From positions 83,797 through 147,796 of the forward strand of contig CAYOJK010000001.1 of assembly GCA_964404285.1 (NCBI GenBank): a DNA stretch of 64,000 nt, given 5' to 3'. The translations under genes were made by a program, and so were the position numbers. How positions within the stretch are numbered: position 1 is the first letter of the stretch; the number at the start of each line of letters is the position of its first letter. The stretch is from an uncultured bacterium (lineage in GTDB: Bacteria > CSSED10-310). Under the pieces are notes generated by a model, which was given only the letters and a program-made list of their open reading frames with translations, was not told where the DNA came from and made no database searches. Shown here one piece after another: positions 7,195 to 35,042 of this stretch.

Positions 7195-7202
7195 ATTGGT
7201 GA

Positions 7203-8617: not shown

Positions 8618-8629
8618 CTTTGTTGTTTT

Positions 8630-10677: not shown

Positions 10678-10804
10678 ATTTATTTCCTTTCAAAGCCAAA
10701 CCGTGCTCATTATAAGTCTTGATTTCATTTTTTTTCAATTAAATCGGTGTAATTGTATTTACCCACCTTGCATGGTATAGACAAATTCAGGGGGTTTTAT
10801 CATT

Positions 10805-11620
10805 ATGAATGAGGAGCAAGCGTCATCTCTCTTCCTTGAACTTTTGAACATTATTCGGACTCTGCGGAGTCCGACCGGTTGTCCTTGGGATCGCAAACAA
10901 ACACATCAAACTCTGATTCCTTATATGCTGGAAGAAGCCCATGAAGCTGTCGCCGCCATTGAAGAAAACAACATGGCCGCCCTGGCGGAGGAACTCGGTG
11001 ATGTTCTGTTGCAGGTCGTATTACATGCCGAAATAGCTTCTGAACGTTTAGAACAAGGTCTGACTGACGGATTTGATATCCAAACAGTATTAAAGGCCAT
11101 AAACTCTAAGTTACGGTATCGCCATCCACATGTTTTCGATGATTTAAAAGTTGAAACCAGCCAAGAAGTTGTTGAAAACTGGACCAAACTCAAATATCTC
11201 GAGCATAAAAGTGATTCAGATGAATCCATTTTAGATACGGTTTCCACTGCCCTGCCGCAACTCACTGCCGCCTGGAAATACCAGGTTCAAGCGGCTCTTA
11301 CCGGTTTTGATTGGGATAACATCGAAGATGTTTTGTATAAAGTTGAAGAGGAATTCCACGAATTAGTGTACGAGATCAAACACGACGAAGGTAAGGAACG
11401 GATCGAAGATGAAGCAGGGGATTTGTTGTTTGCCATCGTAAACCTATGCCGATTTTTGGATGTCAACCCTGAAGACGCTCTGCGTAAGGCGAATAAAAAA
11501 TTCAAACATCGGTTTACTCGTATTGAAAAGCGTTTGGGTGGAGCTGAAAAGATGAAGTTGATGAGTGTAGAAGAACTCGATTTGGAATGGGATAACGTCA
11601 AGCAAGAGGAGACTGAGTAG
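10805..11620 (+). CDS. mazG: nucleoside triphosphate pyrophosphohydrolase MazG
   Basis: 271-aa ORF with tandem MazG domains (RSPTGCPWDRKQTHQTLIPYMLEEAHEAV and EEEFHELVYEIKHDE). Confidence 0.9.
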   Translation: MNEEQASSLFLELLNIIRTLRSPTGCPWDRKQTHQTLIPYMLEEAHEAVAAIEENNMAALAEELGDVLLQVVLHAEIASERLEQGLTDGFDIQTVLKAINSKLRYRHPHVFDDLKVETSQEVVENWTKLKYLEHKSDSDESILDTVSTALPQLTAAWKYQVQAALTGFDWDNIEDVLYKVEEEFHELVYEIKHDEGKERIEDEAGDLLFAIVNLCRFLDVNPEDALRKANKKFKHRFTRIEKRLGGAEKMKLMSVEELDLEWDNVKQEETE

Positions 11621-11624
11621 GCAG

Positions 11625-13682: not shown

Positions 13683-13698
13683 AGTCTGTTACACTCAA

Positions 13699-14052
13699 TT
13701 ACCGTTCATGCTTTTCCTGTTCAGTTTTACAGTGAATACAAAGGCTTGCGACCGGCCTCGCTTCCAACCTTTTTATATCGATATTTTCACCGCATCCCTC
13801 ACACAACCCATATGTTCCATTTTTGATTTTGAGTAGACAGGCATCAATTTTTTGAACCAGTTTCAGCTCCCGATCACGTATTCTCAAAAGAAAATTTCTA
13901 TCCGCCTCTTTGTTAGCCAAATCACCATAATCACCTTTGCGAGATAATTCTTCTGATAACGATTCCGATATTGCATCACTGGTTTCATGTAGCAGTGTGT
14001 TTTTCCATTCCAACAGTTTGTTTTCAAAATATTCAAGCTGTTTTTTATCCAT
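13699..14052 (-). CDS. DksA/TraR-family C4-type zinc-finger transcription factor
   Basis: 117-aa ORF with a coiled-coil N-terminus and the C-terminal CxxC-N17-CxxC finger (CEGCGENI...CIHCK). Confidence 0.85.
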   Translation of the reverse strand: MDKKQLEYFENKLLEWKNTLLHETSDAISESLSEELSRKGDYGDLANKEADRNFLLRIRDRELKLVQKIDACLLKIKNGTYGLCEGCGENIDIKRLEARPVASLCIHCKTEQEKHER

Positions 14053-14181
14053 GAAAATACCCTCCGAATTAAATCCGCAGTAATCAAGATGAATGATTCT
14101 ATTCAGGTCATCTTAATGTGTCAAGAACCTGAAGGATTAAATTCAATTTCATCCGAAATATAATCATGCTAGACTGCTTTT

Positions 14182-16443: not shown

Positions 16444-16645
16444 CATTTTTTGTTTGCTTCCTTTTATCCGTAACAACTCAAATTCGCTCCGACCCTTTCA
16501 AACCGGACACGGGTGTCCGCATTTCGGACAGTTCGGACTGTAAAAAACATATAATCTTTATATTTCAACAGGTTATATTTGAACAAAATACGGCATCTCT
16601 CTTGCTCTATACAGGGATGATTTCAGGCATCGAGGAGGAAATGAG

Positions 16646-18217
16646 ATGTTAGCGAAAATTCAAACCAGTTCAATTTTAGGCGTTGATGCTCAACCGGTAT
16701 TGGTTGAGATTTTTATTCGATGGGGTCAATTGCCTTGTTTTCTTACGGTCGGTCTTCCGGATACGGCAGTTCGGGAAAGTAAGGAGCGGATTTTTGCCGC
16801 TTTGAGTCATTCAGGGTATCGTGTTCCGCCGGCCAAAATCACGATCAATCTGGCTCCGGCAGATGTTCGGAAAGAGGGTTCTTCTTTCGATTTGCCTATA
16901 GCGGTCGGCCTTTTATCAGCGATGGAGATTTTACCCGATCGTGAATACCCGGACACACTGATCATTGGGGAGTTATCTTTGGATGGTGATATTCGATCGG
17001 TTCGAGGTGTTCTACCTATTGCCGCCGGCGCCAAAAAACATGGCTGGAAACGCATGATAGTTCCGATTGAAAATGCGCCGGAGGCATCTTTTGTCGATGG
17101 TTTGACGGTTTATGGAGTAAAAAACTTACTGGAAGTCATTCAAATATTGAATGGCGAAAGAACAGTTAAACCTTTCGACAAAACTCTTTTTCAGAATCGA
17201 GAGATCGAGCGTAACACCGATATTGATTTTTTCGATGTCAAAGGCCAAGAGCATGCGAAGCGTGCAATAGAAGTCGCTGCCGCCGGAGGCCACAACATTA
17301 TTCTGATCGGGCCTCCCGGTTCAGGTAAAACCATGTTGACGCGGCGTCTTCCGACGATTTTACCCGCGCTGTCTTTGGAAGAAGCGCTTGACATATCCAA
17401 AATACACTCGATTTCCGGTCTGATCGATCCTGGGCAGGGGTTGGTCTTTACGCGGCCGTTTCGAGCGCCTCATCATTCGATATCGGATGCGGGGTTGATC
17501 GGCGGCGGCAGTTATCCGATGCCGGGGGAGGTCAGTCTGGCTCATCACGGGGTATTGTTTTTAGACGAAATGCCGGAGTTCAGACGTCATGTTCTGGAAG
17601 TCATGCGGCAACCGCTCGAAGACGGTGTTGTCACATTGACGCGGGCTCTGGCATCAGTGACCTACCCGTCCCGCTTCATGCTGGTCGGAGCAATGAACCC
17701 CTGCCCATGTGGTTATTACTCACATCCGGAAAAAACCTGTTTGTGCAGACCGGATATCATCGCTAAATATCTGGGTAGGATTTCCGGGCCGTTGTTGGAT
17801 CGCATCGATTTGCATATCGAGGTCAACGCGGTCAAATTCAGTGATCTGCAGGATCGCCGAAGAGGAGAATCTTCCAAATCCATTCGGGAGCGGGTGGAGG
17901 CGGCTCGAAAGATTCAGCAGGCTCGGTTTTCACAGTCGGCCTCGTTAAATGGCAACCTAGCATCCCATTGTAATTCACATATGTCATCCCGAGAAATCCG
18001 GACTTATTGCAAACTCAATAGTGACGGGTATCGTTTGATGGAACACGCCATGAAAAGGCTGGGGCTGACCGCTCGGGCCTATGACAGAATATTGAAAGTC
18101 GCCAGAACCATTGCCGATCTGGCGGATTCCGAAACCATCGAATCGCATCACCTTGCAGAAGCCATTCAGTATCGTGCGCTGGACAGATCGCACTGGACAC
18201 ACGCGCATACCTACTGA
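16646..18217 (+). CDS. comM: Mg-chelatase-like AAA+ ATPase ComM/YifB
   Basis: 523-aa ORF with an N-terminal Lon-like domain, Walker A GPPGSGKT, Walker [10 protein letters not shown] and a C-terminal ChlI/ComM domain. There is a strong GGAGGA RBS. Its 3' 520 bp recurs at 35.0-35.6 kb. Confidence 0.93.
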
Positions 18218-18292
18218 ATTTATTCCTCCTCCCTCCTCCTCATTACCATTAACCCTCCAACCGGCACGCCAACCCGGCGTGCCGACCTTTTT
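17696..18292 (+). repeat. Left copy of a ~595 bp direct repeat (comM 3' end + terminator), putative attL of the integrated island
   Basis: The sequence from CTGCCCATGTGGTTATTACTCACATCCGGAAAAAACCTG through the terminator T-run recurs at 35045-35637 with roughly 90-92% identity and no large indels. Confidence 0.85.
18262..18292 (+). terminator. rho-independent terminator of comM
   Basis: GC-rich hairpin CGGCACGCC-aaccc-GGCGTGCCG followed by ACCTTTTT. Confidence 0.8.
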
Positions 18293-18536
18293 GGAAGAAG
18301 AAATAAGGGTGATGAAACGCTGTAAATTACCAAACAGGCATATAAGAAGATCGTTCACACTATCTGGAAACCCAAAACCAAATTGCAAACATTACTTGAC
18401 ACTAACAACGACCGGATTTATTGACATTGTGATCAGGCTATTCCCGATTGCCATTTAACGTGGGATTTAACATGCTAAATAGGGTGGGACGTGATAATTG
18501 CCAAAGGAAAAATCAAGAAACAGATCAGTATCTTAT

Positions 18537-18830
18537 TCACTGTTTCTTTTCTTGCAGAATAAAGATGTTTTTCCTGATCGAGCCTTCATCTACGTTTTTA
18601 GATTTGGTTAATAATGCTGTTTCCAGATTTACGAGCATTTTAAATCTATCGTGACCGCTACTTGCATGACCATCAACATTACATCCGTGTAATTCGTCAA
18701 AATTTGGATACGACAGAACAAGCCCGCTTTTTAAAGAACCCACTACTGATCCACTCCGAGGATCTACAATGTCAATATCTACCATAAGCTCTATTTCACC
18801 TTCTGTTTCTGGGAAAAAAACTTTTGCCAA
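18537..18830 (-). CDS. hypothetical small protein (island cargo)
   Basis: 97-aa ORF with a TTG start only and no recognisable motifs; listed for completeness. Confidence 0.25.
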   Translation of the reverse strand: MAKVFFPETEGEIELMVDIDIVDPRSGSVVGSLKSGLVLSYPNFDELHGCNVDGHASSGHDRFKMLVNLETALLTKSKNVDEGSIRKNIFILQEKKQ

Positions 18831-19097
18831 TTTTGACTCATATAAATAGCTGCGGATATAATGATGATGTGTGCGTAAAAAGTAATTTTCAGGAAAATCG
18901 ATGTTGTATTTTCAAGGGTTTGCGAAGGGGATTCGAGCTAAAAACAGGGTTTTTACATTTGCATCAATGATCAGTAGAAGCCAATATATCAGATGTATTT
19001 TAAAATTTTTCATAACCTCTCCTTTTTACTCGCCTTTTTCATCATGTCCTCAAGATTTTCTTTTATTCGAGCAGGAGTGAAGTGAGGTGGTCAAGTA

Positions 19098-19134
19098 AAA
19101 ACGGACAGAATCATTAAATGTGACAATTTCATGG
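19098..19134 (-). pseudogene. Remnant 5' end of a paralogue of the 167-aa RHS-adjacent (immunity-like) gene
   Basis: About 37 bp here match 27417-27453 at ~85% identity. It encodes MKLSHLMILSVFT followed by a stop, versus MRLSHLTILSVFFMF... for the intact gene at 27451. Confidence 0.5.
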
Positions 19135-19638
19135 CTAAACCGATGGTTCATTATTACTTCTAACACAACGAATCTGTCGAATCATGAAAAGTATCGGGAT
19201 TAGCAAATGCAGAAGAGATGCCCCCAAATAAGCTACTATTTGAAACGTTTCGAACGGCGCTGCAAAGAGATGTTTCCTTGTGTAAAATATGAAAAACAAG
19301 TGAAAGCCTATTGTAAAGTAACAAAACATCACAAGCATGCTATTGGGTTTATTCCAAAAAGCGATCCCAAACGAAATGAGAAGCAACCATAGCAAACCCT
19401 CTGAAGCAGATAGCCAAAACGGATAGTCTAAGTATTCTTCGTCTGATACGTAGCTTTCATTTGATTGAGAGACATAAGTAATGACATCAGGCAAGTAAAA
19501 CAACAAAGCCATGATGGCACAAAAAAGAATCATAGCACCAAATTTAACAAGCTCTTTTGTATTTCGTTTTTCAGGTGTTGGGCTTATCCCATTCGTCCTC
19601 CTTTGCCGTTTGTCAGAAAGCCTCACCTCCTGAAGCAT
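19135..19638 (-). CDS. orphan cassette: small polytopic membrane protein whose N-terminus is homologous to the RHS C-terminal tail
   Basis: With the ATG at 19636-19638 the product starts MLQEVRLSDKRQRRTNGISPT..., matching the last residues of the RHS protein (LQEVKLYDKRQRRTNRLSPT). Three or four hydrophobic helices follow. The six-frame ORF extends to a GTG at 19713. Confidence 0.4.
   Translation of the reverse strand: MLQEVRLSDKRQRRTNGISPTPEKRNTKELVKFGAMILFCAIMALLFYLPDVITYVSQSNESYVSDEEYLDYPFWLSASEGLLWLLLISFGIAFWNKPNSMLVMFCYFTIGFHLFFIFYTRKHLFAAPFETFQIVAYLGASLLHLLIPILFMIRQIRCVRSNNEPSV
19576..19635. repeat. 60 bp direct repeat, copy 1 (matches the RHS 3' end at 27463-27522)
   Basis: TGTTGGGCTTATCCCATTCGTCCTCCTTTGCCGTTTGTCAGAAAGCCTCACCTCCTGAAG versus TGTTGGGCTTAATCTATTCGTCCTCCTTTGCCGTTTGTCATAAAGCTTCACCTCCTGAAG; 55 of 60 bases identical, same orientation. 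Confidence 0.9.
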
Positions 19639-20213
19639 TTCTTTCGTTTCCGGGTCGATGGATTTTGTAAAGCGGCAAGATAACCGGCCCGCGCTTCCGA
19701 GCGCATAAACCACATTATAGCTCCAATCAGCGCAGGACCGAATAGAAACAGAGCATCACAAAAACCGACCCCCTCATTTTTCTCATTTTTACCTGATCGC
19801 AGTGAATCAATTAGATCGATAAAATAACTTATGATCAGCGTTACTATAAGAAATTGCGCATACACATATTTTGTGAACAAAGCGATAAGCAGCAATATTC
19901 CAGTTGTGATTTTAGATTTCTTGCCCGTTCCCGCCGCCGCTAAAAGTGTCAATACCGTAATAAATGCGCCTTGCATTTCGAGCATCGGTTGTGCTGCGTA
20001 CAGTGTCATCATTGGGGAAGTGATAGACAGAACCAAGGCAATCAAACCGGCGGTCCACGCAGCTCCTGGCGCTGCACTCTTACGGGCCGCCCATATCGTC
20101 GCAGCGATTGTCCCCACCCAGAAAATCAACGACAATAAACGAGACGATAAAAAAGATGGACCGCCTATGAAAAATAAAACGGCAAGAATCCACGAATGAA
20201 GAAACGGCCACAA
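19623..20213 (-). CDS. hypothetical polytopic membrane protein
   Basis: 196-aa ORF with 5-6 hydrophobic helices and a TTG start; its stop lies inside the 60-bp repeat. There is no motif evidence. Confidence 0.35.
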   Translation of the reverse strand: MWPFLHSWILAVLFFIGGPSFLSSRLLSLIFWVGTIAATIWAARKSAAPGAAWTAGLIALVLSITSPMMTLYAAQPMLEMQGAFITVLTLLAAAGTGKKSKITTGILLLIALFTKYVYAQFLIVTLIISYFIDLIDSLRSGKNEKNEGVGFCDALFLFGPALIGAIMWFMRSEARAGYLAALQNPSTRKRKKCFRR

Positions 20214-20448
20214 ATTCTGCGATTTCGTGGCAATTACAAAAGCTCGAAAATCATGATTTTTTAGCGCTGATTAAATATTCAAACCATTAAGGCTATGGTC
20301 GGCTCCATCCCATGTCGGCGGCCCTTGCGTCAAAATGAGGGCTTTGTAATTTATCAAGCAGGTTATTGCGAGGATGCCTATTATTATGACCGAAATTAAT
20401 GATCTGTTTTTGTTTGCAATAGGGTTAAGACTAATCATTAGGCTTATG

Positions 20449-20925
20449 TTAATTTATCGAGACGAAAAGAGTCAGACCTTTAATAATAGCCGTTGCATCC
20501 AGTTCCAGGTTCACCTTCGAGGTTCCGTTCATGTCCGGTGCGTATTTCTGCAATCTTTCGAGGAGTTCCAGGTTGCTTACCGGCACATAAGAAGTCGAAA
20601 GTACGGCCCGACACTCGCGCCCGTCCATCCGGACCAAGAATTCCTTGTCCTGGGAGAGCTTTTGGAGCCATCGGTTCACGTTCTGCGCCCGAAGATCTAC
20701 GAGATCATCATCGCACCGCCGGAGGTATCCGGCCTGCACGCCGATCCGGTTCGCGAGCGTATTGAGGGCCTGGGATTGCAACGGCGATGAATTCATGAAT
20801 CCGCTTAACTTCATCGTGCCGTCCGGGTTCATCCGGATCTCGGATACTGGCAATGTCATGTCGAAGAACCGCTTTTCCCTTTCCCGCAACGTCTCGATTG
20901 CTTCAGATATGCTGATCAGTTTCAT
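20449..20925 (-). CDS. hypothetical protein (GC-rich mobile module), translationally coupled to the Cas4-like nuclease
   Basis: 158-aa ORF starting MKLISISEAIE with an AAAGGAGG RBS; its ATG overlaps the stop of the upstream nuclease gene. The six-frame ORF continues upstream to 21012. Confidence 0.55.
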   Translation of the reverse strand: MKLISISEAIETLREREKRFFDMTLPVSEIRMNPDGTMKLSGFMNSSPLQSQALNTLANRIGVQAGYLRRCDDDLVDLRAQNVNRWLQKLSQDKEFLVRMDGRECRAVLSTSYVPVSNLELLERLQKYAPDMNGTSKVNLELDATAIIKGLTLFVSIN

Positions 20926-21731
20926 GCTGCCACCTCCTTTACGTGGAACTGCCGCATCCCGGAATTTCCTTTCCATTCGATGCATTCCTGAAGATACTCG
21001 CAGTCCGTGCACATCCAGTTTGGCGTCGGGAAGAAGATCCCGGTGCAGATTCCCTGCAACACGGCATTCGCGACATTGAACAGCCGGACATAATCGCTTT
21101 CCGTCCGCTGCACCTTGAAGCTCACAATTCGCGTCTGCTTGGACTTCGTGATGTTGTCCAGCCTGATTCCCGGCTCGATCCGGTCGAACAAGTAGCGGAA
21201 CGCGTAGCTATACGCAGTGAGCTGAAGGCTGGCGTTCACCGTGCTCTCGTCCATGACACGCGCCGATGTCTTGTGCTCGACAATGGTATCGTCGGATTCC
21301 AGCAGGTCGATCACGCCCTTCAGATCCATGTCGAGTATTTCGCCAGTTTCCGGATTCACAAGTGGAATCCTAAACTCTACTTCTACGTCCAGCGGCTTTT
21401 TTTCCGGAAGATTCTCCATGTACTTGAGGATCATCCTCTGGCCGGTTTCGGTGAGTGAATCATGGTTCTGTCCGTCCTTGAACCGAACGTTTTGAAACTT
21501 CCATGCGTACCAGTCTGCCTTGAATATCCGGGCAACTTCTTCCTCGGAGATTTTCGGAGCATGATCTATCCGCCGGCGATGGAGCCACTCAAGCGCGGCA
21601 TGGAAAGAGCTTCCGAATGCCAGCGCAGCAGGCTTGAATTTCGGCTCGATCTCGTCGATGTAGGAAAACCTGTATTTCAAGCTGCACATCATATACAAGT
21701 TGATTTGGCTGACGCTGATGTAATCACGCAT
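20922..21731 (-). CDS. Cas4-like PD-(D/E)XK nuclease with Fe-S cysteine cluster (RecB-family exonuclease)
   Basis: The N-terminus has QINLYMMCSLKYRFSY (the Cas4 motif I region with the first Cys). The core has D...EHK, and the C-terminus has CTDCEYLQEC, so the four Cys spacing resembles the Cas4/AddB Fe-S cluster. AGGAGG RBS; the ATG at 21731 sits just downstream of a TTG. Confidence 0.7.
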   Translation of the reverse strand: MRDYISVSQINLYMMCSLKYRFSYIDEIEPKFKPAALAFGSSFHAALEWLHRRRIDHAPKISEEEVARIFKADWYAWKFQNVRFKDGQNHDSLTETGQRMILKYMENLPEKKPLDVEVEFRIPLVNPETGEILDMDLKGVIDLLESDDTIVEHKTSARVMDESTVNASLQLTAYSYAFRYLFDRIEPGIRLDNITKSKQTRIVSFKVQRTESDYVRLFNVANAVLQGICTGIFFPTPNWMCTDCEYLQECIEWKGNSGMRQFHVKEVAA

Positions 21732-21797
21732 CAATGCCTCCTTTCTGCTTGGCTGGCAGGGAAATTATCCCGTGCCAGCCCGTTTCGATGTTTGCGG

Positions 21798-22271
21798 TTA
21801 CGCCGCCTGCTTGACCATGTCGTCGATCAGCTTGCTCGCCTGGGACTTCGTCACGTCGTTGAGATCATTGACTTTGAGGATCTGGATCAGGGTCGAAAGT
21901 GCTTCGTCGCCCTCGATGCCCCTCTCAGCGAGCAGCCGGAACAGATAACGCCGCTGGGATTCGGTCATCGCGCCGTTCTTCTTCCCGCTGTTCTGTTCCC
22001 GCTTGAACTGGCTCGGAATAACGGAACCGTTGGAGCAGTTTCCCTTGTTCGCCTGGATGACGCTTTCCGGGAGTGTCGAAGCGGGTCTTCCGTTCCCGTT
22101 CGTCCGGCTCTCAAGCTGGCGGGACACGGCTGCTTCCGCCTCCTTGAACAGGTAATCCGCGACTTCCGCGATGTCGTTGAACTCGGTGTCGCATTCCATG
22201 GAGACCGTGAAGGTCTCGTTTTCGTAGTCTCCTGTGGAGACCTTCTTCGAGAAATTGGTCAGGATTCTCAT
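21798..22271 (-). CDS. hypothetical protein (GC-rich mobile module)
   Basis: 157-aa ORF with a strong AGGAGG RBS and no recognisable domain; co-oriented with the nuclease and replication-relaxation genes. Confidence 0.5.
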   Translation of the reverse strand: MRILTNFSKKVSTGDYENETFTVSMECDTEFNDIAEVADYLFKEAEAAVSRQLESRTNGNGRPASTLPESVIQANKGNCSNGSVIPSQFKREQNSGKKNGAMTESQRRYLFRLLAERGIEGDEALSTLIQILKVNDLNDVTKSQASKLIDDMVKQAA

Positions 22272-22607
22272 GGCTTTTACCTCCTTTCCTGACAGGTTCG
22301 GTTACACAGCTTTATTGCTGTCGATTGGGTTATTTATTTGTAAATGAGCGATATCACTCTGGTGATAGCCGATAAAGAAGTGTCCATGCTTGAAGTATGA
22401 ACGCCTCTTCAACGGCCTCCTGCAATCTGCCGGAAACCCATTTCTTGCCGGGAATCCGGCAGATCTGACGACTCTGGCAAGTTTCGGTCATTAAGGACGC
22501 ACTTATGGTGTTTCGGCGCCCCCAGGAAGCCCCAGGAGATTCCTCGCTGGCTCTCGGCAGCCTCTATTGATCCTGGCTTTCAAGAGTAAACGAGGAATGA
22601 CTCTGGA

Positions 22608-23522
22608 TCATTCGGGAATCAAAGCCATGGGACGGTCATAATCGCTGACAGCGCGATACCATATTGGCTCAAAGATGCTTGATGGATTTTCCAAGTTGAT
22701 TCTGTCGAAGGTCGTGAACCAGAAGAAGCCGCTGCCCCTTCCGGAATCGCTGGCCTTTATTGTCGTCCTGATGAGGTTACCCATCCTCCGGTCGTTGGTC
22801 GTGACCGTCAGCACTCGGAAATTCCGCACGCCGTATCTGTCGACATAACCCTTATGCTTCCACCATTCATAATACCCACGCTGCTTCAGCTTGAATTTCC
22901 GATGCCCGATGGTTCCCCTGTCGATCTCCACATACGCGCACATCCTGCCCTTGGGAGTCTGGATGCACATGAACCCGTCCGGAACCAACGGAACCCGAAC
23001 ATGGTGGCCTCTGTCATTTTCAATGAAAATGGTGTCGCCAACAGCCCGATCCTGCTTCCAGAACAGGAAGTCCAGATCTTCACGATCTCGGCATGCGGCA
23101 AGGATCGCTGCCCTGAAGTCGTTTCTTCTCAGCGTATGGTGAAGCAGGAAGTAGTAGTTACGGCTGGAATCCACCCTTGATACTTTTCCCGGTTCTATTC
23201 CGAGCTGTTCTGCAATCAATCTCCGGCCATGCGAGCCGACAACGTATATTGACGGGGGTGAACCTTCGCCAACGAATAACGGGAGATCAACTCGATCAAG
23301 CAATCTGTTTTGCCAGAGCAGGTAAAGCCTGATCCTGGCTGTTTGAAGGTTTGAGTTGATCATGAGCGCGACCTGCTTGGCCGTCGCGAACCTCAGCTCG
23401 GAGACGGATTTGACGATCTGGATGTCGCGCTCAGTTATTTTCATCCTCGGTGGGTTTACCGTGTCCCTCTTGAATCTTGATCTCCGCTTCTTTCTTCTTG
23501 TGAAAAGTGGGTTTCCATTCAT
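22608..23522 (-). CDS. replication-relaxation family protein (Replic_Relax, plasmid/ICE-type)
   Basis: 304-aa ORF. The N-terminal wHTH segment (ITERDIQIVKSVSELRFATAKQVALMI) and overall architecture match the replication-relaxation family. The start overlaps the stop of the upstream small ORF. Confidence 0.65.
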   Translation of the reverse strand: MNGNPLFTRRKKRRSRFKRDTVNPPRMKITERDIQIVKSVSELRFATAKQVALMINSNLQTARIRLYLLWQNRLLDRVDLPLFVGEGSPPSIYVVGSHGRRLIAEQLGIEPGKVSRVDSSRNYYFLLHHTLRRNDFRAAILAACRDREDLDFLFWKQDRAVGDTIFIENDRGHHVRVPLVPDGFMCIQTPKGRMCAYVEIDRGTIGHRKFKLKQRGYYEWWKHKGYVDRYGVRNFRVLTVTTNDRRMGNLIRTTIKASDSGRGSGFFWFTTFDRINLENPSSIFEPIWYRAVSDYDRPMALIPE

Positions 23523-23779
23523 TTTTCTGGATACCTTATGCCGAATGTCTTCGCGTAGAATTTCAGACGGGAGATGAATGAATCGGTTTTGGATCGAGGT
23601 ATGATCGCGATGCTGTTCGCCCTTTCGGTTTCCCTGAGCGCCATACGGATCAATGGCCGGGGAACATTCGAGACGATTTCAAGGAATTGCTTCCAATTCT
23701 TCTCATTGAGTTGCTTCGCCAGGCTTTTTGCTTGAATGCGTGAGATAATTGGATAGAATCGATTTCTTTTTTTTTTCAT
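23519..23779 (-). CDS. hypothetical small basic protein
   Basis: 86-aa ORF translationally coupled to the replication-relaxation gene. Confidence 0.4.
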   Translation of the reverse strand: MKKKRNRFYPIISRIQAKSLAKQLNEKNWKQFLEIVSNVPRPLIRMALRETERANSIAIIPRSKTDSFISRLKFYAKTFGIRYPEK

Positions 23780-23986
23780 TGTCGTTAGTTTTGTTTATCC
23801 ACAAGGAAATGTGGCTGATTAGTAAGGTTTTACGGCAATCAGAGTCGTCCGTTGTTTCTTACTGGAAGCAGTCCGTCGTTGCGTCTCGTAACTTCTAGTT
23901 CATAAATACTTGGTTCTAGTTTCTTCCAAGTGGCACCGGTCAGTGAAATCTTGGAACGGAAGCGGGTTCCGTGTAAAAGCTGTGGA

Positions 23987-24352
23987 CTATTGGCCTGTTT
24001 TTTCTTCCTTCTGGAAGTGGAAGATTGCGAGTCCAGAATGAGGCAGAATGCGGTAGTTAAGCGATGCGAACCGGCCGGACGGCGTTCGCTTTTTCTCAGC
24101 GATATCGATGATCGGCCTTCCGTTTAATCGGAATCTGCTGAGGGATCTTACACGATCCCAGGCTGACGTATGCGAAACCCCGATATCCCTCGCCAACCTT
24201 GCCTGCGATGGATTACATTTCCCGTCCTGGTTCATGTATGTTGCGAGAACGCACAAAGTCTTCCAGTCTCGGTCTGATATTGCCGAGAGCAGCCCGGACT
24301 TCCGGGCTTCTATGTAAAATTTGACGAATATTTTCTTGTTCTGGTCTTGCAT
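23987..24352 (-). CDS. helix-turn-helix DNA-binding protein
   Basis: 121-aa ORF with a wHTH-like segment (QARLARDIGVSHTSAWDRVRSL). Confidence 0.5.
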   Translation of the reverse strand: MQDQNKKIFVKFYIEARKSGLLSAISDRDWKTLCVLATYMNQDGKCNPSQARLARDIGVSHTSAWDRVRSLSRFRLNGRPIIDIAEKKRTPSGRFASLNYRILPHSGLAIFHFQKEEKTGQ

Positions 24353-24455
24353 GATTATTCGATCTGAGCGAATTAGATTACATAAATATTGCTCCGTAGA
24401 ATGGACGAATTATTTTTTCCATTCCAAGTGCGCATGGGTAGCGGTGTAGGACTTG

Positions 24456-24761
24456 CTAGCTGTTGGGCGGATGAGCTTTCTGAGCTGAAATATCTTCCGG
24501 TCGGAAGCCCTCCTGAATGAGTTCATCCCTAGCGTCCCGGGCAAGGTTCGGAAACAACTGGTCGATCCTGGCGTTAAGCAGGAACTGCAACTTCAGAGCG
24601 TTCTTGAGATTCGGCGACTTGAACCCGGTTTCCCAGTAGCCGATTGCCACGGCTGTCTTGTGACCGAGAAGGCTTGCCGCCTTCTTGCGGTTCAGTCCGC
24701 GCAGCTTTCTGACAAGCGCGACTTGGTTTGGAGGATTTGGTTTTATGGGTTTAGTATTCAT
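24456..24761 (-). CDS. XRE-family HTH transcriptional regulator
   Basis: 101-aa ORF with the HTH_3 signature (NRKKAASLLGHKTAVAIGYWETGFKSPNLKNALKL). Confidence 0.75.
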   Translation of the reverse strand: MNTKPIKPNPPNQVALVRKLRGLNRKKAASLLGHKTAVAIGYWETGFKSPNLKNALKLQFLLNARIDQLFPNLARDARDELIQEGFRPEDISAQKAHPPNS

Positions 24762-25082
24762 GGAGCATCCTCCGGATCTCCGGATTTATTAGGTCTCTTA
24801 ATCCTACCAACCTGTCCACAGATACGCTCCCAAAATTGTTTCCCATGAGAAAAAAACCGTCGATCAAAGACGATTCTTTTATCTAAACTATGCGATTTTC
24901 CATGTGGATAACTCGGTCTGAATGTACCTTGACCCGGTACGTGGTACGGGTATTGTACGTACGTTTCTTTTCATCCCGCGCAGGTATTTCCACCTCAAAT
25001 ACTTCCAAAGAGAAGCAAAGTTGCCTGATCTTGCCCGGTATCTCCGTTATGCTGGAAGCAGAAGTAACTTCCAGCAAACAAA

Positions 25083-25259
25083 ATGGAGATTTCAAAAAAG
25101 AAGCTTGAAGAATTCAAGCAAATTATCCGCGAAGACTACGGCCAGGAGCTTTCCGACAAGGAAGCATACCGGGTTGCCAACAAGGTGCTGACAATGTTCA
25201 GGATCATTTGCCAGCCCCAGCCTGAGGACTTCCGAAATAATCACAAACAAGATGCCTAA
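25083..25259 (+). CDS. small ORF (58 aa) overlapping the serine recombinase start; candidate accessory/directionality factor
   Basis: The ATG at 25083 reads through to a TAA at 25257-25259, which overlaps the recombinase ATG at 25252. The product is MEISKKKLEEFKQIIREDYGQELSDKEAYRVANKVL.... It is below the 60-aa cutoff of the supplied track and has no clear RBS. Confidence 0.3.
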   Translation: MEISKKKLEEFKQIIREDYGQELSDKEAYRVANKVLTMFRIICQPQPEDFRNNHKQDA

Positions 25260-26829
25260 ATATTTCGTTTACACGCGCAAATCGACCGAATCGGAGGACA
25301 AACAAGTCCTATCCCTGGAATCCCAGCAAAAAGAGCTGGATAGTTTTGTCGAGCGAGAGAAACTGGAAGTCGTGGAATATATCGAGGGTGAATCGAAGAG
25401 CGCGAAGCAGCCTGGAAGGCCGATTTTCGACAAAATGATCAAGCGGATCGAGAAAGGAGAAGCTGACGGGATCATTGCCTGGCATCCGGATCGGCTTGCT
25501 AGAAATTCCGTTGACGGCGGGAAAATTATTTATCTGCTCGATACAGGCAAGCTGAAAGAGCTGAAATTTCCGACGTACCGTTTCGAGAACGACTCCCAGG
25601 GAAAGTTCATGCTTAACCTGATCTTCGGCCAGTCGAAGTATTACGTTGACAGCCTGAGCGAGAACGTAAGGCGTGGAAACAAAACGAAGCTCGAAAAAGG
25701 CTGGCTTCCGGGCGTCGCGCCCATGGGATACCTGAACGATGTAAAAAACAAGACAATCGTGAAAGATCCAGAAAGGTTTCGGCTGATCAGAAAGATGTGG
25801 AATATGCTGCTTTCCGGCGCGTATTCCGTCCCTGAGATCCACCGGATAGCCTGCGATGACTGGGGCTTTAAGACGAAGAAGTTCAAGCGGACAGGCGGCA
25901 AGGAAATCAGTCGGAGCATGATTTATAGGCTGTTTGAGAATCCATTCTATTACGGGCTGATCAGACGCAATGGCGACACATACCAGGGAGCGCATGAACC
26001 GATGGTGACACTCGCCGAGTTCGAGCGAGTGCAGAGATTACTCGGAAGGGATGAACGTCCAAGATATGAAAAACATGATTTCGCTTATACAGGAATGATC
26101 CGGTGCGCCGAATGCGGTTGTCAGATTACCGCGAGCAATCACAAAAATCGGTTCGGATCTCGGTATATCTATTACCACTGTACAAAACGAAAAAAAGGAG
26201 CCAAATGCTCCCAAAAATATGTGCGATTAGAGGAATTGGAACGGCAGATCCTAAAAATACTGGACGATATTACGATTTCCGATCAGGTCAAGGATTGGGC
26301 TATCCAGTATCTGCGAGAGAAAAATGACAGCGAGATTATTGACCGACAGCAGATATTCAAAGCCCAGCAACGAGCTTATGCAGCCTGCCAGAAGCAACTT
26401 GACGAACTAACCCGGATGCGCCTGAGAGATCAGGTGAACGATTCAGAATATGCCTCCATGAAAAAGGAACTTTTATCGGAACTGATCAGCCTAAAAGAAA
26501 AATTGACCGATACGGAGCATCGGGCGAGTAGATGGTTTGAACTTTCAGAGAAGGCGTTTATATTCGCGAATGAAGCGAAAAAACGGTTCGAGACCGGATC
26601 ATTCAATCAAAAACGGGAAATTGTCCAATCTCTCGGTTTGAACTTTTCATTGAAGGACGGAAAACTGCATGTACAACTGGAAATTCCGTACCTCATAATA
26701 TCGAAAAAACCTAAAAATCGCAGTTGGCAGGCCACAGTAGACATAATCGGAACCTTTTTTCGTAAATTGGACGGTGATTTCCATATTCCAACTTGGACTT
26801 CTGAAAATGAGTCCGCAATCACCCCTTAG
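25252..26829 (+). CDS. large serine recombinase (resolvase/invertase N-domain + recombinase + zinc-ribbon domains)
   Basis: 525-aa ORF with the N-terminal catalytic domain YTRKSTESEDKQVLSLESQ (Ser nucleophile), a DRLAR motif and a central recombinase domain. A Cys pair (CAECGC...HCTKRK) is followed by a coiled coil. Confidence 0.9.
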   Translation: MPKYFVYTRKSTESEDKQVLSLESQQKELDSFVEREKLEVVEYIEGESKSAKQPGRPIFDKMIKRIEKGEADGIIAWHPDRLARNSVDGGKIIYLLDTGKLKELKFPTYRFENDSQGKFMLNLIFGQSKYYVDSLSENVRRGNKTKLEKGWLPGVAPMGYLNDVKNKTIVKDPERFRLIRKMWNMLLSGAYSVPEIHRIACDDWGFKTKKFKRTGGKEISRSMIYRLFENPFYYGLIRRNGDTYQGAHEPMVTLAEFERVQRLLGRDERPRYEKHDFAYTGMIRCAECGCQITASNHKNRFGSRYIYYHCTKRKKGAKCSQKYVRLEELERQILKILDDITISDQVKDWAIQYLREKNDSEIIDRQQIFKAQQRAYAACQKQLDELTRMRLRDQVNDSEYASMKKELLSELISLKEKLTDTEHRASRWFELSEKAFIFANEAKKRFETGSFNQKREIVQSLGLNFSLKDGKLHVQLEIPYLIISKKPKNRSWQATVDIIGTFFRKLDGDFHIPTWTSENESAITP

Positions 26830-26947
26830 GCTTCGTAAGTATAATAGCAGCGGATTAATTAGCTGGCAATGAACACCACTTCCCCTGAGAAGTATTTGTG
26901 GGGATAAAATCTGAATATTTCATCCTCTTTTGATCCTCCTGGGTTTG

Positions 26948-27451
26948 TCATTTCTTCAGATGGAAGACTGTTGTAGCAACTATTGGGTCTATGCAAGGAG
27001 TTGTCTTATATTCATTTAGATTTGTTTTGTCCACCTTTTCTGGCATTTTATATGCTGGTAACGTGAACTTGAGTTCATAGTCACCTTCTGGAAGCTCAAA
27101 GTCTTTTAAGTTTATAGTCTTTTGGCAAACAAGATAACTTGAGCTTGGCAGATAGAAGAAAGTCCTTCCCATTGGGAAATGCACATCTGTAACAAGGAAT
27201 CCTTTGTTAATTGCCGGATCATCTAGTTTGACAAAATGATAAGGTATGTCAGAGCCTACTCTTTCCAAGATCTTATCATCGAGAATACAACCCTCGGCAT
27301 CATCTGCACACATCAATTTAAGATTAATCTGCATTTCTTCACATTCATAAAATGTCTTTTTCTCCAGTTCGATTTCCATCTTTACCTGGCTATATGCAAT
27401 TTGGTGGAACATGAAAAAAACGGATAGTATCGTTAAATGTGACAATCTCAT
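26948..27451 (-). CDS. secreted small protein, candidate immunity protein for the RHS C-terminal metallopeptidase toxin
   Basis: 167-aa ORF with a signal-peptide-like N-terminus (MRLSHLTILSVFFMFHQIAYSQ). Its ATG overlaps the RHS stop codon (ATGA), indicating translational coupling. Confidence 0.5.
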   Translation of the reverse strand: MRLSHLTILSVFFMFHQIAYSQVKMEIELEKKTFYECEEMQINLKLMCADDAEGCILDDKILERVGSDIPYHFVKLDDPAINKGFLVTDVHFPMGRTFFYLPSSSYLVCQKTINLKDFELPEGDYELKFTLPAYKMPEKVDKTNLNEYKTTPCIDPIVATTVFHLKK

Positions 27452-30400
27452 GGTAACTCCTTTGTTGGGCTTAATCTATTCGTCCTCCTTTGCCGTTTGT
27501 CATAAAGCTTCACCTCCTGAAGGACCTTTTTGATATAGGGAATATTTCTAATCTCTTCAGGTCTCTTATTATGGGGCTCATACTGTTTTTTTAGAACCGT
27601 ATAATCATATGCTTCCTGTGCAGCAGTCCCCAGGTTGCTGATTGCGTCTTCTGCGTGCCCAATCTCATGTATCAATACACCTGCTAACTTTTTGTTTCTT
27701 GTAACGAGCACGTCCTCGACGGTGATTGTAACGCCGTATAGAACTGTTAAATCGGGATTTATAGTATCTGTCACTTTAGTCCCTGTGCTATCAAGTTTCA
27801 TTGCGGGAGAAATCCTTGCTTTATGTGTTCCTTCGGCTGGTATACCCGTTGGATCTACAAGGTTCTGGCCAGATGTTATAGTTAAGTCTGGATTTTGAGT
27901 TCCTCTATATTTAGCAAGAGTGCTTTTTACTGTTGGAGATGCATTTTCTAAACTTAAAACCATTCCCTCCAATGCTTTTGAATGGGGTCCTCTGAAAAAT
28001 ATTTCAAGACCGTTAGGATCTGTGAAATTTACAGGGTTATTTTGGCAAAATGTATAGCGGTTCCAACTTTGCGGGTTTTCCAAATATCCTTTTATAGCAT
28101 CAGGACTTAAAAACCTTGGAGGCAATTCATAGTTTGTTTGCTCGGTGATGGCATTAAGATAACGAGCGTTGAAATAGTGTTTCTGGGTTGTAGATTCGAA
28201 CAGTTTACCAGTGTATCGAATATCTTGTGCGGAAAACACCGGACTTCCAAGATCATCAAAATCTGCGCCAAAGGGCTCGTAATTGTGCACCTCATATGGC
28301 AGGCCGCCTGTTTGCTCCGGCCATACTATTGTGGCAACATCATTAGTGAACGCCATTGGGGAGCCAAGGTGATTAAGGTGCGCAAAAATGATAGTAGTTG
28401 TTGCTCCATCATCTGTAACTCTTACTAAGAGTTCTCCACCTAAATAAATATTATCAATGAAAAGCATTGCTGATGTATCGAACTCTGATAGTAAAAGTTC
28501 TCCGAGATATGAATAAATGAATGTGTTGCTTCCTTCTGCCTTGTAAATTCTCTTATCTATTCCGTCATATCGGTATTGAACTGTAGAGTCGGTATCGATC
28601 AGTTTCCCTAGCTCATCGTAGGTGTAAAGATAAATGCTGTCATCGGTCATATTGCCGTCAGCATCATGAGTAACGCTGGCAATCTTGTTATTGGAATAGG
28701 TGAAGCTTGAGGTGTCTGAGGGATTGGTTTTGGCAACACTCAGAATATTGCCCACGCTGTCATAGGAATAGGTGAAATTCCTGCTCCCAAGTCCGGTGGC
28801 CGTCTCAATCCTGTTCAAATTGTCATACGTGAAGGTGGTTGTTCCAAGTTCGGTGATGTTACCAAAGGCATCATAGGCAAAACTATCGTTCACTAAATCA
28901 TCAACGCCGATTTGCGTGACCCAGCTCGATGGCCGATTTCGAACATCATGAGAAATTGTCGTTACAACTCCATTGCCAAACACATACTCTTCAAGCCCGC
29001 CTGCCGGATTGTGCAGGAGACCATTTGCCATGGTCTGTGTTCCGGAACTCCCGGTAAGAGATATTGTTTCCAGTAGATTTGTTCCCGCTCCATATGTGTA
29101 AGAAACATCGATTCCGGACGGATAAACGATATTGTTGAGGTTCCCCAGCGTGTCATATCCAAAGTAATAACTTGCAGTCAGTGCTGGACTTGCAAGGTTT
29201 ACATCTTTTAATAGATTGCGTCCCTGGACATCAAATTCCGGCCAGACTAAAATGCTCTCCTCGTTAAGAGACACACCTTTACGCACTACAGCACCGGTTC
29301 GGTGATTGAAAGCCTCCACATAAAAACCTGGAGCGTCATCACCGGTAAAATTCAATATGTCATCTCCATCATAGTAGTAGTCCACCTTGATTTGATCTGC
29401 TCCGCTGCCGGCATTCTTTGAAGTTAATCTGTAGATCTCATCATACGTGAAGCTGATAACCCTGCCAGAAGCTTTGGAGATTGTCTCGACTTGGCCGGAA
29501 TTATAATAGGTGTAAGTGACGGTGCCTGTTTCCGGATGTGTCTCGCTTGTCAAGCGCCCTAGGCCGTCATAGATAAACGTCCGGTCAGAACACGTCACAT
29601 CATTGGGATGATCTACCAACGTCAGATTATCCAGGACATCATATCCATAGTCGAAAAGCTTGCTGTCGGCATCGGTAATCTGATCCAGCCTGCCCAGAGC
29701 ATCATATAATTTCACTGTTGTCTGGGTTCCTCTAGTAATAGTCACTTCATTTCCGTCATAGGAATAGGTCGTTGTTCCGTCCGGATCAGTCACGTCAATC
29801 AACCTGTTGAGGGGGCCATATGTGTAATACATTCCGTCTGTTGAAGAAGACGAAAATGATGCTTCCGAGATGAAATTTGGATTCCCGACAGCATCGTATT
29901 CCTGATTAATGTAGGATGGCCCGGCTTGGTCGCTCGGAATTATGGTCTGTTTCAATCTGCCTAGAGCGTCGTAATTGTAGGTTATAGAATACGATCCCTG
30001 TGTTGATGTTACCTGTCCGCCAGTCACATCATATGTCAGAGCCGTTTGCAGGTCTGAGGGTGGTGTTATCTGGATCAAATGCCCCAGATCGTCATAAACA
30101 TAATTCGTCGTGTTCCCGTTCGGATCGGTGATGCTTGTCACTCGGCCTGTATCCGGGTCAACTCCTTGTGAAAACGTCATGTAACTTGAATCCGGCAACT
30201 GCTGAGGAGTGGTGATTTGAGAAATGGTTCCGGCATTCCAGGCAAATGTAGTCACCTTGGCTTGTGCATCTGTAATCGTGTAAAGATTGCCTGCATCTCC
30301 TGCTGAAGTGTAATAAGCATATCCCACTATAATGTCAGGGGATCCGGTGGACGGATCTGTCCACTGATTCACCGACTGCAAGCGAGTAAATTTGGGGTCA

Positions 30401-34790: not shown

Positions 34791-35042
34791 TTACGGATTA
34801 CGTGGGTCATACCCAATAAACTCGATAATCTTTAGGATCAGTTTGTCCTGGGGATACGAGTGAGACATCTCCCAGTTGTGAATGGTGCCTTCGTCAACAC
34901 CGATTATGTTGGCAACATCTCTCTGGAAAAGCTTCAAGTCCATCCGTCTCCTGCGGATATGGTCGCCAATCGTTCTTGGCGTTTCCGGGTACGAGAAAGG
35001 CAATGGTTTCGAGGCTTTGAGCGTAAGTGGCAACTGTTCCAC
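34791..35042 (-). CDS. XRE-family HTH regulator at the island edge
   Basis: 83-aa ORF with an HTH_3-like segment (IRRRRMDLKLFQRDVANIIGVDEGTIHNWEMSHSYP). Its GTG start abuts the right comM repeat, so the start is uncertain. Confidence 0.55.
   Translation of the reverse strand: MEQLPLTLKASKPLPFSYPETPRTIGDHIRRRRMDLKLFQRDVANIIGVDEGTIHNWEMSHSYPQDKLILKIIEFIGYDPRNP

Follow-up and report, generated by a model that had tools for sequence, protein, structure and literature searches.

A probable remnant of a serine-integrase/MOBC mobilizable element at comM in an uncultured bacterium

Integrative and mobilizable elements (IMEs) carry their own integrase and a relaxase and/or an origin of transfer (oriT), without a complete type IV secretion system. 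The described class nearest to the locus reported here is the streptococcal IME_Class_8, which combines a serine integrase, a MobC relaxase and VirD4 (PMC5357655). The relaxase family of Pfam, Replic_Relax (PF13814), is recognised as MobC by CONJscan (PMC5357655) and has been placed in the PD-(D/E)XK superfamily (PMC3424549). MOBC relaxases have been related to restriction endonucleases (Francia 2013, cited in PMC6499999), and as of 2019 they were without a three-dimensional structure (PMC6499999). The present locus lies in a stretch of 64,000 nucleotides from an uncultured bacterium (assembly GCA_964404285.1, contig CAYOJK010000001.1; the whole stretch is called the window below). At positions 20486-26849, downstream of comM, a set of mobilization genes stands divergent to a large serine recombinase gene. 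In our reading, to which we give a probability of roughly 0.8, this block is the regulatory, DNA-processing and integrase part of an IME with a serine recombinase, a MOBC relaxase and a VirD4-like type IV coupling protein (T4CP), which is now a remnant at comM. The initial annotation, made from the sequence alone, had proposed a replicative or maintenance module instead. The features of the block are given here, with L numbers for related loci.

20486 to 26849: conserved, foreign block of mobilization module plus serine recombinase cassette, delimited by colinear blastn
24456 to 24761, minus strand: 101-aa XRE-type helix-turn-helix (HTH) regulator, first gene of the module (Pfam HTH_3, E 3.4e-5; 69-74% identity to L001/L004)
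23987 to 24352, minus strand: 121-aa HTH_36 DNA-binding protein (Pfam HTH_36, E 2.7e-8; PHROG 12720 'DNA binding protein', E 5e-31; 82-85% identity to L001/L004)
23519 to 23779, minus strand: 86-aa protein, its stop overlapping the relaxase start in ATGA (44-90% identity to L001/L004/L006; dN/dS 0.08)
22608 to 23522, minus strand: predicted 304-aa MOBC-type relaxase, N-terminal winged HTH plus PD-(D/E)XK-like domain (Pfam Replic_Relax)
22373 to 22605, minus strand: structured non-coding element with core 22373-22533, candidate oriT (RNAalifold, covariance model)
21798 to 22271, minus strand: 157-aa protein (p157), putative nuclease partner (predicted structure, synteny; weak DUF3072 match)
20922 to 21731, minus strand: predicted 269-aa Cas4-like/RecB-family PD-(D/E)XK nuclease with a four-cysteine (Fe-S) motif (Pfam PDDEXK_1, E 4.4e-30)
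20449 to 20925, minus strand: cut-off DUF932 gene, a 158-aa open reading frame (ORF) with homology over 20485-20925 only, its final 11 codons being junction sequence
25083 to 25259, plus strand: conserved 58-aa ORF overlapping the recombinase start (90% identity to the 58-aa gene of L001, 39-51% to L004/L006)
25252 to 26829, plus strand: 525-aa large serine recombinase, a predicted integrase (Pfam Resolvase, Recombinase and Zn_ribbon_recom; PHROG 95 integrase, E 2e-77; 90% identity to L001)

The evidence that carries this reading comes from relatives located through homologues of the 304-aa protein. By blastn the block is colinear with L001 (83% over 6.4 kb), L004 (71%) and L006 (66-77% in four pieces), and the homology ends sharply, which places the limits at 20486-26849 and not at 20440-24800 as proposed initially. 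One gene order is common to L001/L002, L004/L005, L006/L007 and L100-L103, as far as each contig extends: a divergent serine recombinase with a gene of 55-58 aa, then an XRE regulator of ~100 aa, the 121-aa HTH_36 protein, a protein of 86-90 aa, Replic_Relax, a protein of 150-169 aa and a PDDEXK_1 nuclease of 252-269 aa. In the seven loci that reach past the nuclease (L001/L002, L004, L006, L100-L102) a DUF932-type protein of 321-325 aa comes next. It is followed by a ParB_N protein in L001/L002, and L001/L002/L004 continue with a gene of 147-159 aa and one encoding a protein of ~1020 aa. This large protein contains TrwB_AAD_bind, T4SS-DNA_transf and TraG-D_C domains, matches VirD4-like/TraD models of NCBIfam, and is by its domain content a T4CP.

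The seven co-oriented minus-strand genes pointing away from the recombinase, which the initial annotation had described, are thus real (Pfam/PHROG) and all kept in the relatives, while its inventory missed an eighth conserved gene, the 58-aa ORF on the plus strand. Gene overlaps were also seen correctly: ATGA arrangements are present at 20922-20925 (nuclease/158-aa ORF) and at 23519-23522 (86-aa gene/relaxase). Profile searches with the three small proteins that had been singled out returned no family of single-strand annealing proteins (SSAPs): the 158-aa ORF is the N-terminal part of a DUF932 protein, p157 has a weak DUF3072 match, and the 86-aa protein has zero matches in Pfam, PHROG and NCBIfam. 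The recombinase is intact in seven assemblies; an apparent truncation in L106/L107 (a 275-aa call) was a gene-calling artefact, as tblastn finds 100% intact copies. Compared with L001, dN/dS is 0.05-0.12 for every gene including the DUF932 fragment, with the XRE gene at 0.32. Constraint has acted on these genes, and in relation to the divergence from L001 the truncation is recent.

The foreign origin of the block was approached through composition and through related strains. As claimed, 20440-24800 is GC-rich: its GC content of 0.513, compared with 0.429 for the whole window, ranks first among the 4.36-kb windows of the 64 kb, and such windows outside the island have 0.423+-0.022 with a maximum of 0.462. 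The GC content at third codon positions is 0.53-0.80 in the seven block genes versus 0.38-0.50 in host genes. GC is also raised at the 3' end of comM (17.3-18.2 kb, 0.51-0.54) and in an Rhs gene (0.46-0.47), and the relatives of the block have 0.47-0.52 irrespective of their flanks. The donor of higher GC that the initial annotation suggested is plausible. The long spurious ORFs on the other strand are likewise present, with 276 aa (21462-22292), 171 aa (20943-21458) and 144 aa (20645-21079), all antisense on the plus strand. Via comM cluster members, strains were identified that match the flanks at 80-93% nucleotide identity. One of them, L091, has GGDEF, DksA, TMEM260-like and comM genes followed directly by DUF4143 ATPase, methyltransferase, WbqC and DnaJ genes. 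The window aligns to it at 6644-18383 and 43519-53315, so that 18384-43518 (25.1 kb) is missing in L091; L092-L094 have a different island after comM. Because L091 lacks this stretch and the block is an outlier in GC at all and at third codon positions, the block 20486-26849 is to be regarded as foreign. GC is not flat across the window, nor is the block part of a conserved chromosomal synteny, and therefore the core of the initial annotation, a horizontally acquired block, survives. Its assignment to an integrative or mobilizable element agrees with the recurrence of the same gene order beside serine recombinases in unrelated contigs. Among plasmids, PLSDB yielded just two weak relaxase matches (23-30% identity). 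The representative genomes of GTDB contain two distant loci only.

The 304-aa protein matches Replic_Relax with 62.3 bits (cutoff 25.3) over profile positions 2-187 of 191. In an alignment of 18 homologues down to 28% identity, D182, E199 and D201 (PDG...EIDxGT) are invariant, as are H129, N134, D135 and R137, and the predicted arrangement, in which an HTH precedes a PD-(D/E)XK-like core that has conserved acidic residues, is that of MOBC relaxases. Linkage to a T4CP is seen in the relatives, not in the window: it is found in L001/L004, and of 36 metagenome loci that span 8 kb or more and encode distant relaxase homologues (26-40% identity), 24 contain a T4CP homologue, mostly at most 2 kb away, and 8 a serine recombinase. 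By family and neighbourhood, the protein is a MOBC-type relaxase, and the block is not a replication core. A relaxase profile found no match in the Protein Data Bank (PDB). In L101 (10055-12573) a second, divergent Replic_Relax gene stands beside a 541-aa T4CP, ~6 kb from the first relaxase module, an arrangement that suggests tandem MOBC systems or nested elements.

The role first proposed for this protein was a different one. According to that proposal the block would be the autonomous replication and maintenance core of a functional small integrative element, with the Cas4-like nuclease and the 158-aa protein as a RecE/RecT-like pair. The 304-aa protein does match PHROG 9381, 'replication initiation by nicking' (E 2.6e-12), and the genes are intact and were under purifying selection, with an intact recombinase in all seven assemblies. 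Relaxases of some integrative elements also act as rolling-circle initiators, e.g. NicK of ICEBs1. It is possible that the relaxase doubles as such an initiator, and that there is some truth in the word 'replicative'. However, Pfam and PHROG searches revealed no Rep, helicase, primase or partition gene in the block of the window, and the ParB gene of L001/L002 is missing. The 158-aa ORF is what remains of a DUF932 gene up to codon 147, an uninterrupted comM means that there is no attL junction, and the T4CP of the relatives marks conjugative mobilization. A replicative core is therefore improbable in our view.

As an IME, the locus shows its own integrase, the 525-aa large serine recombinase, and a predicted relaxase and candidate oriT without a complete type IV secretion system: no such secretion genes occur in the island of the window, and the relatives have the T4CP only. 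Transfer of intact relatives should therefore depend on a helper conjugative element. Of the two element ends only an attR-type junction (35046/35047) was found. Intact relatives share with IME_Class_8 (PMC5357655) the three signature modules, the compact layout and the lack of type IV secretion genes. In contrast to that class, the host is an uncultured lineage known from metagenome-assembled genomes and not a Firmicute, the target is codon 351/352 of comM, and the family adds the XRE/HTH_36/86-aa set and an operon of p157, Cas4-like nuclease and DUF932 (plus ParB in some); the window copy, moreover, has lost the coupling protein and one end. TraX of pAD1 and MobC of CloDF13 (Francia et al. 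2013, cited in PMC6499999) likewise have PF13814, an N-terminal HTH with a restriction-endonuclease-like domain, and T4CP linkage. Plasmid-borne MOBC copies differ in having no detectable similarity beyond the two weak PLSDB matches, and TraX and MobC were compared by description only.

Family membership and gene order suggest how an intact relative might work. The XRE and HTH_36 regulators would control divergent promoters, and the serine recombinase, possibly together with the 58-aa protein, would integrate the element at comM and excise it. The relaxase would bind and nick the structured element 3' of its own gene, and the ~1020-aa T4CP would pass the relaxase-DNA complex to the type IV secretion system of a helper. 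The operon beyond the structured element, encoding p157, the nuclease, the DUF932 protein and sometimes ParB, may act on transferred or excised DNA, with p157 most likely tethering the nuclease via a domain like the C-terminal domain (CTD) of Red-beta to give an exonuclease/annealase-like pair. The 58-aa ORF has no family match in Pfam or NCBIfam; that it is a recombination directionality factor is speculative. Between the XRE and 58-aa genes, a promoter-like TTGACC-16-TATTGT (24929-24956, plus strand), embedded in GGTACG repeats, is kept in the window, L001, L004 and L006, and it is probably the promoter/operator of the recombinase operon. A dyad CTTCC-N5-6-GAAGTATTTG occurs in inverted copies at 24981-25015 and 26879-26913, which bracket the cassette of 58-aa and recombinase genes and are both kept in L001 and L004; the recombinase or a regulator could bind to these copies, which may also bear on an inversion of the block. 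Promoter and terminator scans gave nothing above the shuffled expectation.

Conservation is unusually high in the 336-nt spacer that separates the relaxase and p157 genes. For eight relatives RNAalifold predicts five helices with 53 pairs, 24 of which show compensatory changes versus 13.2+-2.4 in column shuffles (0/500 reach this value), though the structure was derived from the same alignment that tested it. Paired cells amount to 88.9% compared with 79% in the shuffles and 40-51% with partners slid. The window sequence folds with -117.7 kcal/mol, and the z-score of the minimum free energy is -7.1 on the gene strand versus -3.1 on the opposite one. With a covariance model built from the core 22373-22533, three weak extra matches were found in 958 kb (E 0.003-0.02), in L011, L012 and L068, all of them directly 3' of a relaxase gene and on the relaxase strand, and no p157 or nuclease homologue was detected at these loci. 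Upstream of other nuclease pairs (those of L095-L097, see below) the model has no match. The structured element thus travels with the relaxase, which favours an oriT, and on balance this is what we take it to be, with modest confidence.

The competing explanation is an RNA read from the gene strand, which could be a small RNA or else a 5' leader or riboregulator belonging to the p157-nuclease operon. It has points in its favour, as the element occupies the position of a 5' untranslated region of that operon, the conserved U-G/G-U pairs would be A-C mismatches on the opposite strand, and the difference in z-scores has the sense expected for a transcript. The many U-G pairs of the sense strand are no less compatible with an RNA leader than with a DNA oriT, and this counts against our assignment. 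The transferred single strand of an oriT can fold with G-T pairs likewise, however, no Rfam family matches the element, and the distribution of the covariance matches, next to relaxase genes that lack the p157-nuclease pair and never upstream of the pairs in L095-L097, does not follow the operon. We therefore rank the RNA below the oriT, as a less probable alternative that deserves to be kept in view.

The 269-aa protein matches PDDEXK_1 over its full length and also phage exonuclease PHROGs. The initial description as Cas4-like holds at the level of motifs: C17, C242, C245 and C251 (C...Cx2Cx5C) and the RecB motif residues D143, (E/D)-x-K155, Q171 and Y175 do not vary among six homologues with identities down to 37%. 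The Cas4 profiles stay below their cutoffs, with 34.6 versus 65 bits for NCBIfam cas4 TIGR00372 and 18.1 versus 22.7 for Pfam Cas_Cas4. Tandem Repeats Finder detected no CRISPR array in the window, no cas gene is present among the ORFs scanned, and the neighbours are the relaxase and DUF932. The protein shares the RecB motifs and the cysteine set with Cas4 and AddB-type Fe-S nuclease domains, and differs from Cas4 in its profile score, in the lack of CRISPR-cas and in its mobilization-module context; by these motifs, it is a Cas4-like/RecB-family Fe-S nuclease and not a Cas4.

The initial annotation had further proposed that this nuclease could be a recombination exonuclease and that the 158-aa ORF would be its annealase or accessory partner. 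The second part fails, since that ORF is the 5' remnant of a DUF932 gene, and the first part, an exonuclease with a partner, fits the protein encoded upstream, p157. Two-component recombinases of exonuclease and annealase are known, for example Bet/Exo of the SXT-family integrative and conjugative elements (ICEs). In its predicted structure p157 has an N-domain of ~58 residues, formed by a beta-hairpin and a helix (pLDDT 50-70), and a C-domain of three helices (AF2 pLDDT 85-88), joined by a disordered linker. The best PDB fold matches of the C-domain are the CTD of Red-beta, 8tg7_A and 8tfu_B, with probabilities of 0.97/0.96, TM of 0.65/0.61 and an rmsd of ~3 A over 63 columns. This domain of Red-beta binds lambda Exo and SSB (PMC6393309). 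A pair of p157 type and nuclease type is adjacent in L008, L016, L059 and L095-L097. The p157 C-domain is also found on other N-domains (P0082-P0094). For two of these proteins, P0083 and P0088, a PDDEXK_1 gene follows directly, and the elements concerned encode a T4CP; the element in L097, which has P0083, contains a serine recombinase too.

The matches to the Red-beta CTD have an E value of 0.4 over 63 residues, p157 has no SSAP match in Pfam or NCBIfam, and its N-domain is without a recognisable SSAP fold; all this speaks against an annealase. BFVD matches of p157 to ERF/SSAP/RecT are weak (E 0.01-0.9, TM 0.2-0.3). Phages of Bacillus, Geobacillus and Staphylococcus encode nuclease homologues with 23-25% identity, and the closest one, of Geobacillus phage TP-84 (24.6% identity, E 7e-15), adjoins an annotated SSAP; p157 and this SSAP show no similarity. 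PDB sequence searches with the nuclease, a full-length DUF932 protein and p157 gave no matches. In our estimate, p157 and the nuclease probably form a physical pair; the exonuclease/annealase-like character of the pair has weak support from the modelled fold, and we doubt that p157 itself anneals DNA. It could be that an adaptor with interchangeable N-domains recruits the nuclease, as a minimal system for recombination or DNA-end processing of incoming or excised DNA.

With lambda Exo/Red-beta, RecE/RecT and the RecB-like nuclease plus SSAP of TP-84, the present pair has in common the tight linkage of a gene for a predicted RecB-family exonuclease with that of a small partner, and the modelled three-helix C-domain of the partner resembles the CTD of Red-beta. 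It differs from exonuclease plus annealase systems in the short N-domain (~58 residues) of the partner and in the gene order, partner then nuclease, and from lambda Exo and RecE in that the nuclease appears to be of the Cas4/AddB type with an Fe-S motif. Perhaps two features are undescribed so far, a cassette of Red-beta-CTD-like adaptor and Cas4-like exonuclease in MOBC/T4CP elements and a first oriT architecture for the environmental MOBC branch, but we suggest this only tentatively. In that case the window copy would be a frozen example, still holding the relaxase, the oriT-like element and the nuclease pair.

The larger relatives P0083-P0088 (L095 8001-8696; L096 1753-2442) have 229-235 aa and share the C-domain of p157. 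Their N-domain contains an invariant 'GDA.P.NV....PH.IRMAETRAKARALRDAVN.G' motif and has no profile match or confident fold match; the AF2 model of P0083 is of low confidence (pLDDT 56) and has no meaningful PDB fold match. By eye we take the pattern 'GDA..N...RMAETRAKARALR' to be Rad52/Sak-like, a resemblance unconfirmed by profile or fold. Homology of the p157 N-domain to this larger N-domain was rejected, as hhalign with the N-domains alone gave a probability of at most 0.1. A 100% hhalign match of p157 with P0083-P0088 was discarded as circular, because one alignment (A4) contained the sequences of the other (A5).

Several results show that the window copy is incomplete. Residues 1-147 of the 158-aa ORF align with 84-90% identity to the 324-aa DUF932 proteins of L001/L004/L006, after which homology is lost in tblastn, and at the DNA level it breaks at 20485/20486, i.e. 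at DUF932 codon 147. The ORF matches positions 71-166 of 391 of PHROG 1362. The DUF932 domain (PF06067) occupies ~110-299 of the 324 aa, and the ORF of the window has no Pfam match, while the full-length protein of L004 scores 32.2 against a cutoff of 23. The 158-aa ORF is accordingly best described as a truncated DUF932 gene. A word-index search with the ORF returned only itself; the full-length relatives came from the loci. Its exact product is present on 18 contigs. The DUF932 C-half, ParB, the 147-aa gene and the T4CP have left no trace in the 64 kb. Because of the cut inside DUF932, the lack of a T4CP, the inversion relative to the attR-side end and the lack of attL, the window copy is to be seen as a fixed, non-autonomous and immobilised remnant with its remaining genes intact.

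The identical arrangement is found in seven assemblies from different samples, with 99.98-100% nucleotide identity and one additional insertion sequence in one of them. Samples that contain the island include ERZ3460579, ERZ4239849, ERR4682867, SRR8925785 and SRR21159537. The insertion sequence is a DDE_Tnp_1_4 element in L104 (14477-15790, on a 1.08-Mb contig of ENA ERZ3460579), located in the gene debris at the equivalent of window position ~19.1 kb; over 16000-19151 the flank in this strain is just 97.5% identical, compared with 99.98% across the rest of the island.

That every remaining ORF is intact, in an arrangement shared by seven assemblies, and that dN/dS is 0.05-0.12, could be read as domestication, in which the p157-nuclease pair, the regulators or the recombinase serve the host in recombination/repair, defence or Rhs regulation. 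The position of the block between an Rhs toxin/immunity pair and an orphan Rhs tip, in a defence-rich hot spot, would suit such a role. The seven copies are so similar, however, that there is no time depth to separate retention from recency, and the low dN/dS versus L001 mostly reflects selection while both copies were mobile. That the DUF932 fragment is no less well kept than the intact genes argues for recency, and no host-specific function can be named. Domestication is thus rather unlikely, though it has somewhat more in its favour than the replicative core.

The target site of the family can be read from the duplicated end of comM, for which three features are needed.

16646 to 18217, plus strand: intact comM/yifB (Pfam ChlI, Mg_chelatase and Mg_chelatase_C)
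34791 to 35042, minus strand: 83-aa HTH_3 gene at the element end by attR (Pfam HTH_3; 70% identity to the start of the terminal HTH_3 gene of L004)
35047 to 35639, plus strand: displaced comM 3' end, copy B (91% identity to copy A, first 72 nt identical)

The last 519 nt of comM and its terminator (17699-18292, copy A) are repeated as copy B, which begins exactly at codon 352 (between AMN and PCPCG), so that 35046/35047 is an attR-type junction. In L004 a homologous terminal HTH_3 gene is followed by a comM fragment starting at the same PCPCG, and in L090, a distant relative from IMG/VR, comM breaks off after AMN(351), where its N-terminal part abuts a serine recombinase gene at the 3' end of the latter. 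Since all three break between AMN(351) and PCPCG(352), these junctions identify the point between codons 351 and 352 of comM as the insertion site of the element family. In L079 comM is broken at another site, near residue 220. The comM gene of the window is intact because its 3' end is duplicated. It runs uninterrupted through codons 351/352, which is an attB-type sequence, and there is consequently no attL junction in the window.

AbaR/Tn6022-type islands of Acinetobacter, which are Tn7-like transposons, reportedly also target comM/yifB. The target gene and the variable island at the locus are thus shared with them; different are the large serine recombinase acting at one fixed codon and the intact comM of the window. 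Copy A carries ~90 nt of L091-type downstream sequence and copy B 600 nt of L092-type at 93%, and at the protein level copy B has the variants of L091/L092. Which copy is the native 3' end is undecidable by identity, since any two of A, B and L091/L092 share ~91% identity. Two kinds of history fit: the element may have brought a surrogate comM 3' end, or one-sided homologous plus illegitimate recombination rebuilt comM, or imported a foreign chromosome chunk with a partial element. The motif 'GCAATGAAC' at 26866-26874, past the recombinase, was considered as a comM-derived remnant of attL and rejected, since it belongs to an element-internal region conserved in L001/L004.

Several points weigh against the reading of the block as an IME remnant at comM. 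Compared with L004, the block of recombinase and module is inverted relative to the junction of HTH_3 gene and comM 3' part, and the orientation of the recombinase is opposite to that in L090. To account for this, one must assume either illegitimate recombination or an inversion that broke within DUF932 on one side, together with loss of the stretch from the DUF932 C-part to the 216-aa gene. The sequences of the relatives stop short of the left end, and family members may or may not carry a surrogate comM 3' end. The MOBC assignment combines a Pfam match with the equivalence of PF13814 and MobC in the literature, and not a MOBC-specific profile (CONJscan/MOBscan), and PHROG 9381 with a possible rolling-circle function, discussed above, points to another role. 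The roles of relaxase, oriT, T4CP and recombinase are predicted from family membership and gene neighbourhood. Finally, the integrity of all remaining genes could equally mean retained function and not decay.

A remnant of a prophage or phage satellite was considered too, because serine integrase, XRE repressor, Cas4-like exonuclease and DUF932 together resemble the early region of a temperate phage. Six of eight proteins scanned have PHROG matches, the nuclease has the homologues in Bacillus, Geobacillus and Staphylococcus phages mentioned above, and L090 stems from the viral collection IMG/VR. Yet no capsid, terminase, tail or lysis gene was found in the island of the window or in any relative, and it is a MOBC relaxase and a VirD4-like T4CP that characterise the neighbourhood. 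Moreover, searches of 2.9 million viral contigs with the relaxase alignment gave a single locus, and none with recombinase and T4CP queries. A phage origin is thus very improbable, by far the weakest of the explanations, and the IME remnant is retained.

The sequences on both sides of the block comprise two further features.

26948 to 34554, minus strand: Rhs/YD-repeat toxin of 2368 aa plus a 167-aa putative immunity gene (RHS_repeat/TEN_YD-shell Pfam matches on the identical protein)
18384 to 20485: gene debris from comM to the cut DUF932, with a 97-aa ORF, an Rhs-tip/immunity remnant at 19097-19713 and a frameshifted PMT_2 5' fragment at ~19650-20438 (repeats D2/D7, weak PMT_2 match)

The Rhs toxin and immunity genes fill the variable cargo position beside the 3' end of the recombinase gene; in L001/L004 homology ends just past the recombinase stop, and AAA_13 and restriction-modification genes follow. 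The C-terminal tip of the toxin holds an HExxH motif (LIHEIGHAED), and the putative immunity gene overlaps the toxin gene. An orphan copy of toxin end and immunity start (19097-19713, minus strand; 87-89% identity over 69 + 38 nt) lies 7.9-8.3 kb downstream of the main gene and is fused to an ORF with multiple transmembrane segments, and the mobilization block stands between the main Rhs gene and this orphan. The debris region is absent from L091. Its PMT_2-type glycosyltransferase 5' fragment (19650-20438, minus strand) is frameshifted, starts 10 nt past the stop of the cut DUF932 and is cut on its 3' side by the orphan Rhs tip; neither this fragment nor the 97-aa ORF has relatives in any retrieved locus.

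Downstream of comM lies a variable defence hot spot (window 35640-43518; L092 11573-21410; L093; L094). In the window, 35601-36038 is a nucleotidyltransferase-like ORF, 37917-38630 encodes a Bro-N protein and 38998-42804 a type IIG restriction-modification enzyme of 1268 aa; a protein of 491 aa is encoded there as well. The related strains have an HTH/Peptidase_M78 pair, a thymidylate-kinase/HMUDK_hel protein, a radical SAM protein and a Type ISP enzyme there, and L091 has nothing. A 31-nt tandem repeat (1.9 copies, 43525-43584) is located at the right edge (43519) of the stretch missing from L091, and the empty site of L091 bears a similar repeat.

The comparison replaces the 'replicative module' by a conjugative mobilization module and its 'nuclease partner' by a broken DUF932 gene, and the locus is due to be annotated as a degraded IME at comM rather than as an active replicon or a novel system of recombination. 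The overall kind of element, IMEs with serine integrase, MobC and VirD4, is already known; the extra modules and the defined comM target set this family apart. It is an environmental serine-integrase/MOBC/T4CP family with a precise insertion point at comM codons 351/352, in which a small Red-beta-CTD-like protein is regularly paired with a Cas4-like nuclease, and it supplies a candidate oriT for MOBC relaxases that is supported by covariation.

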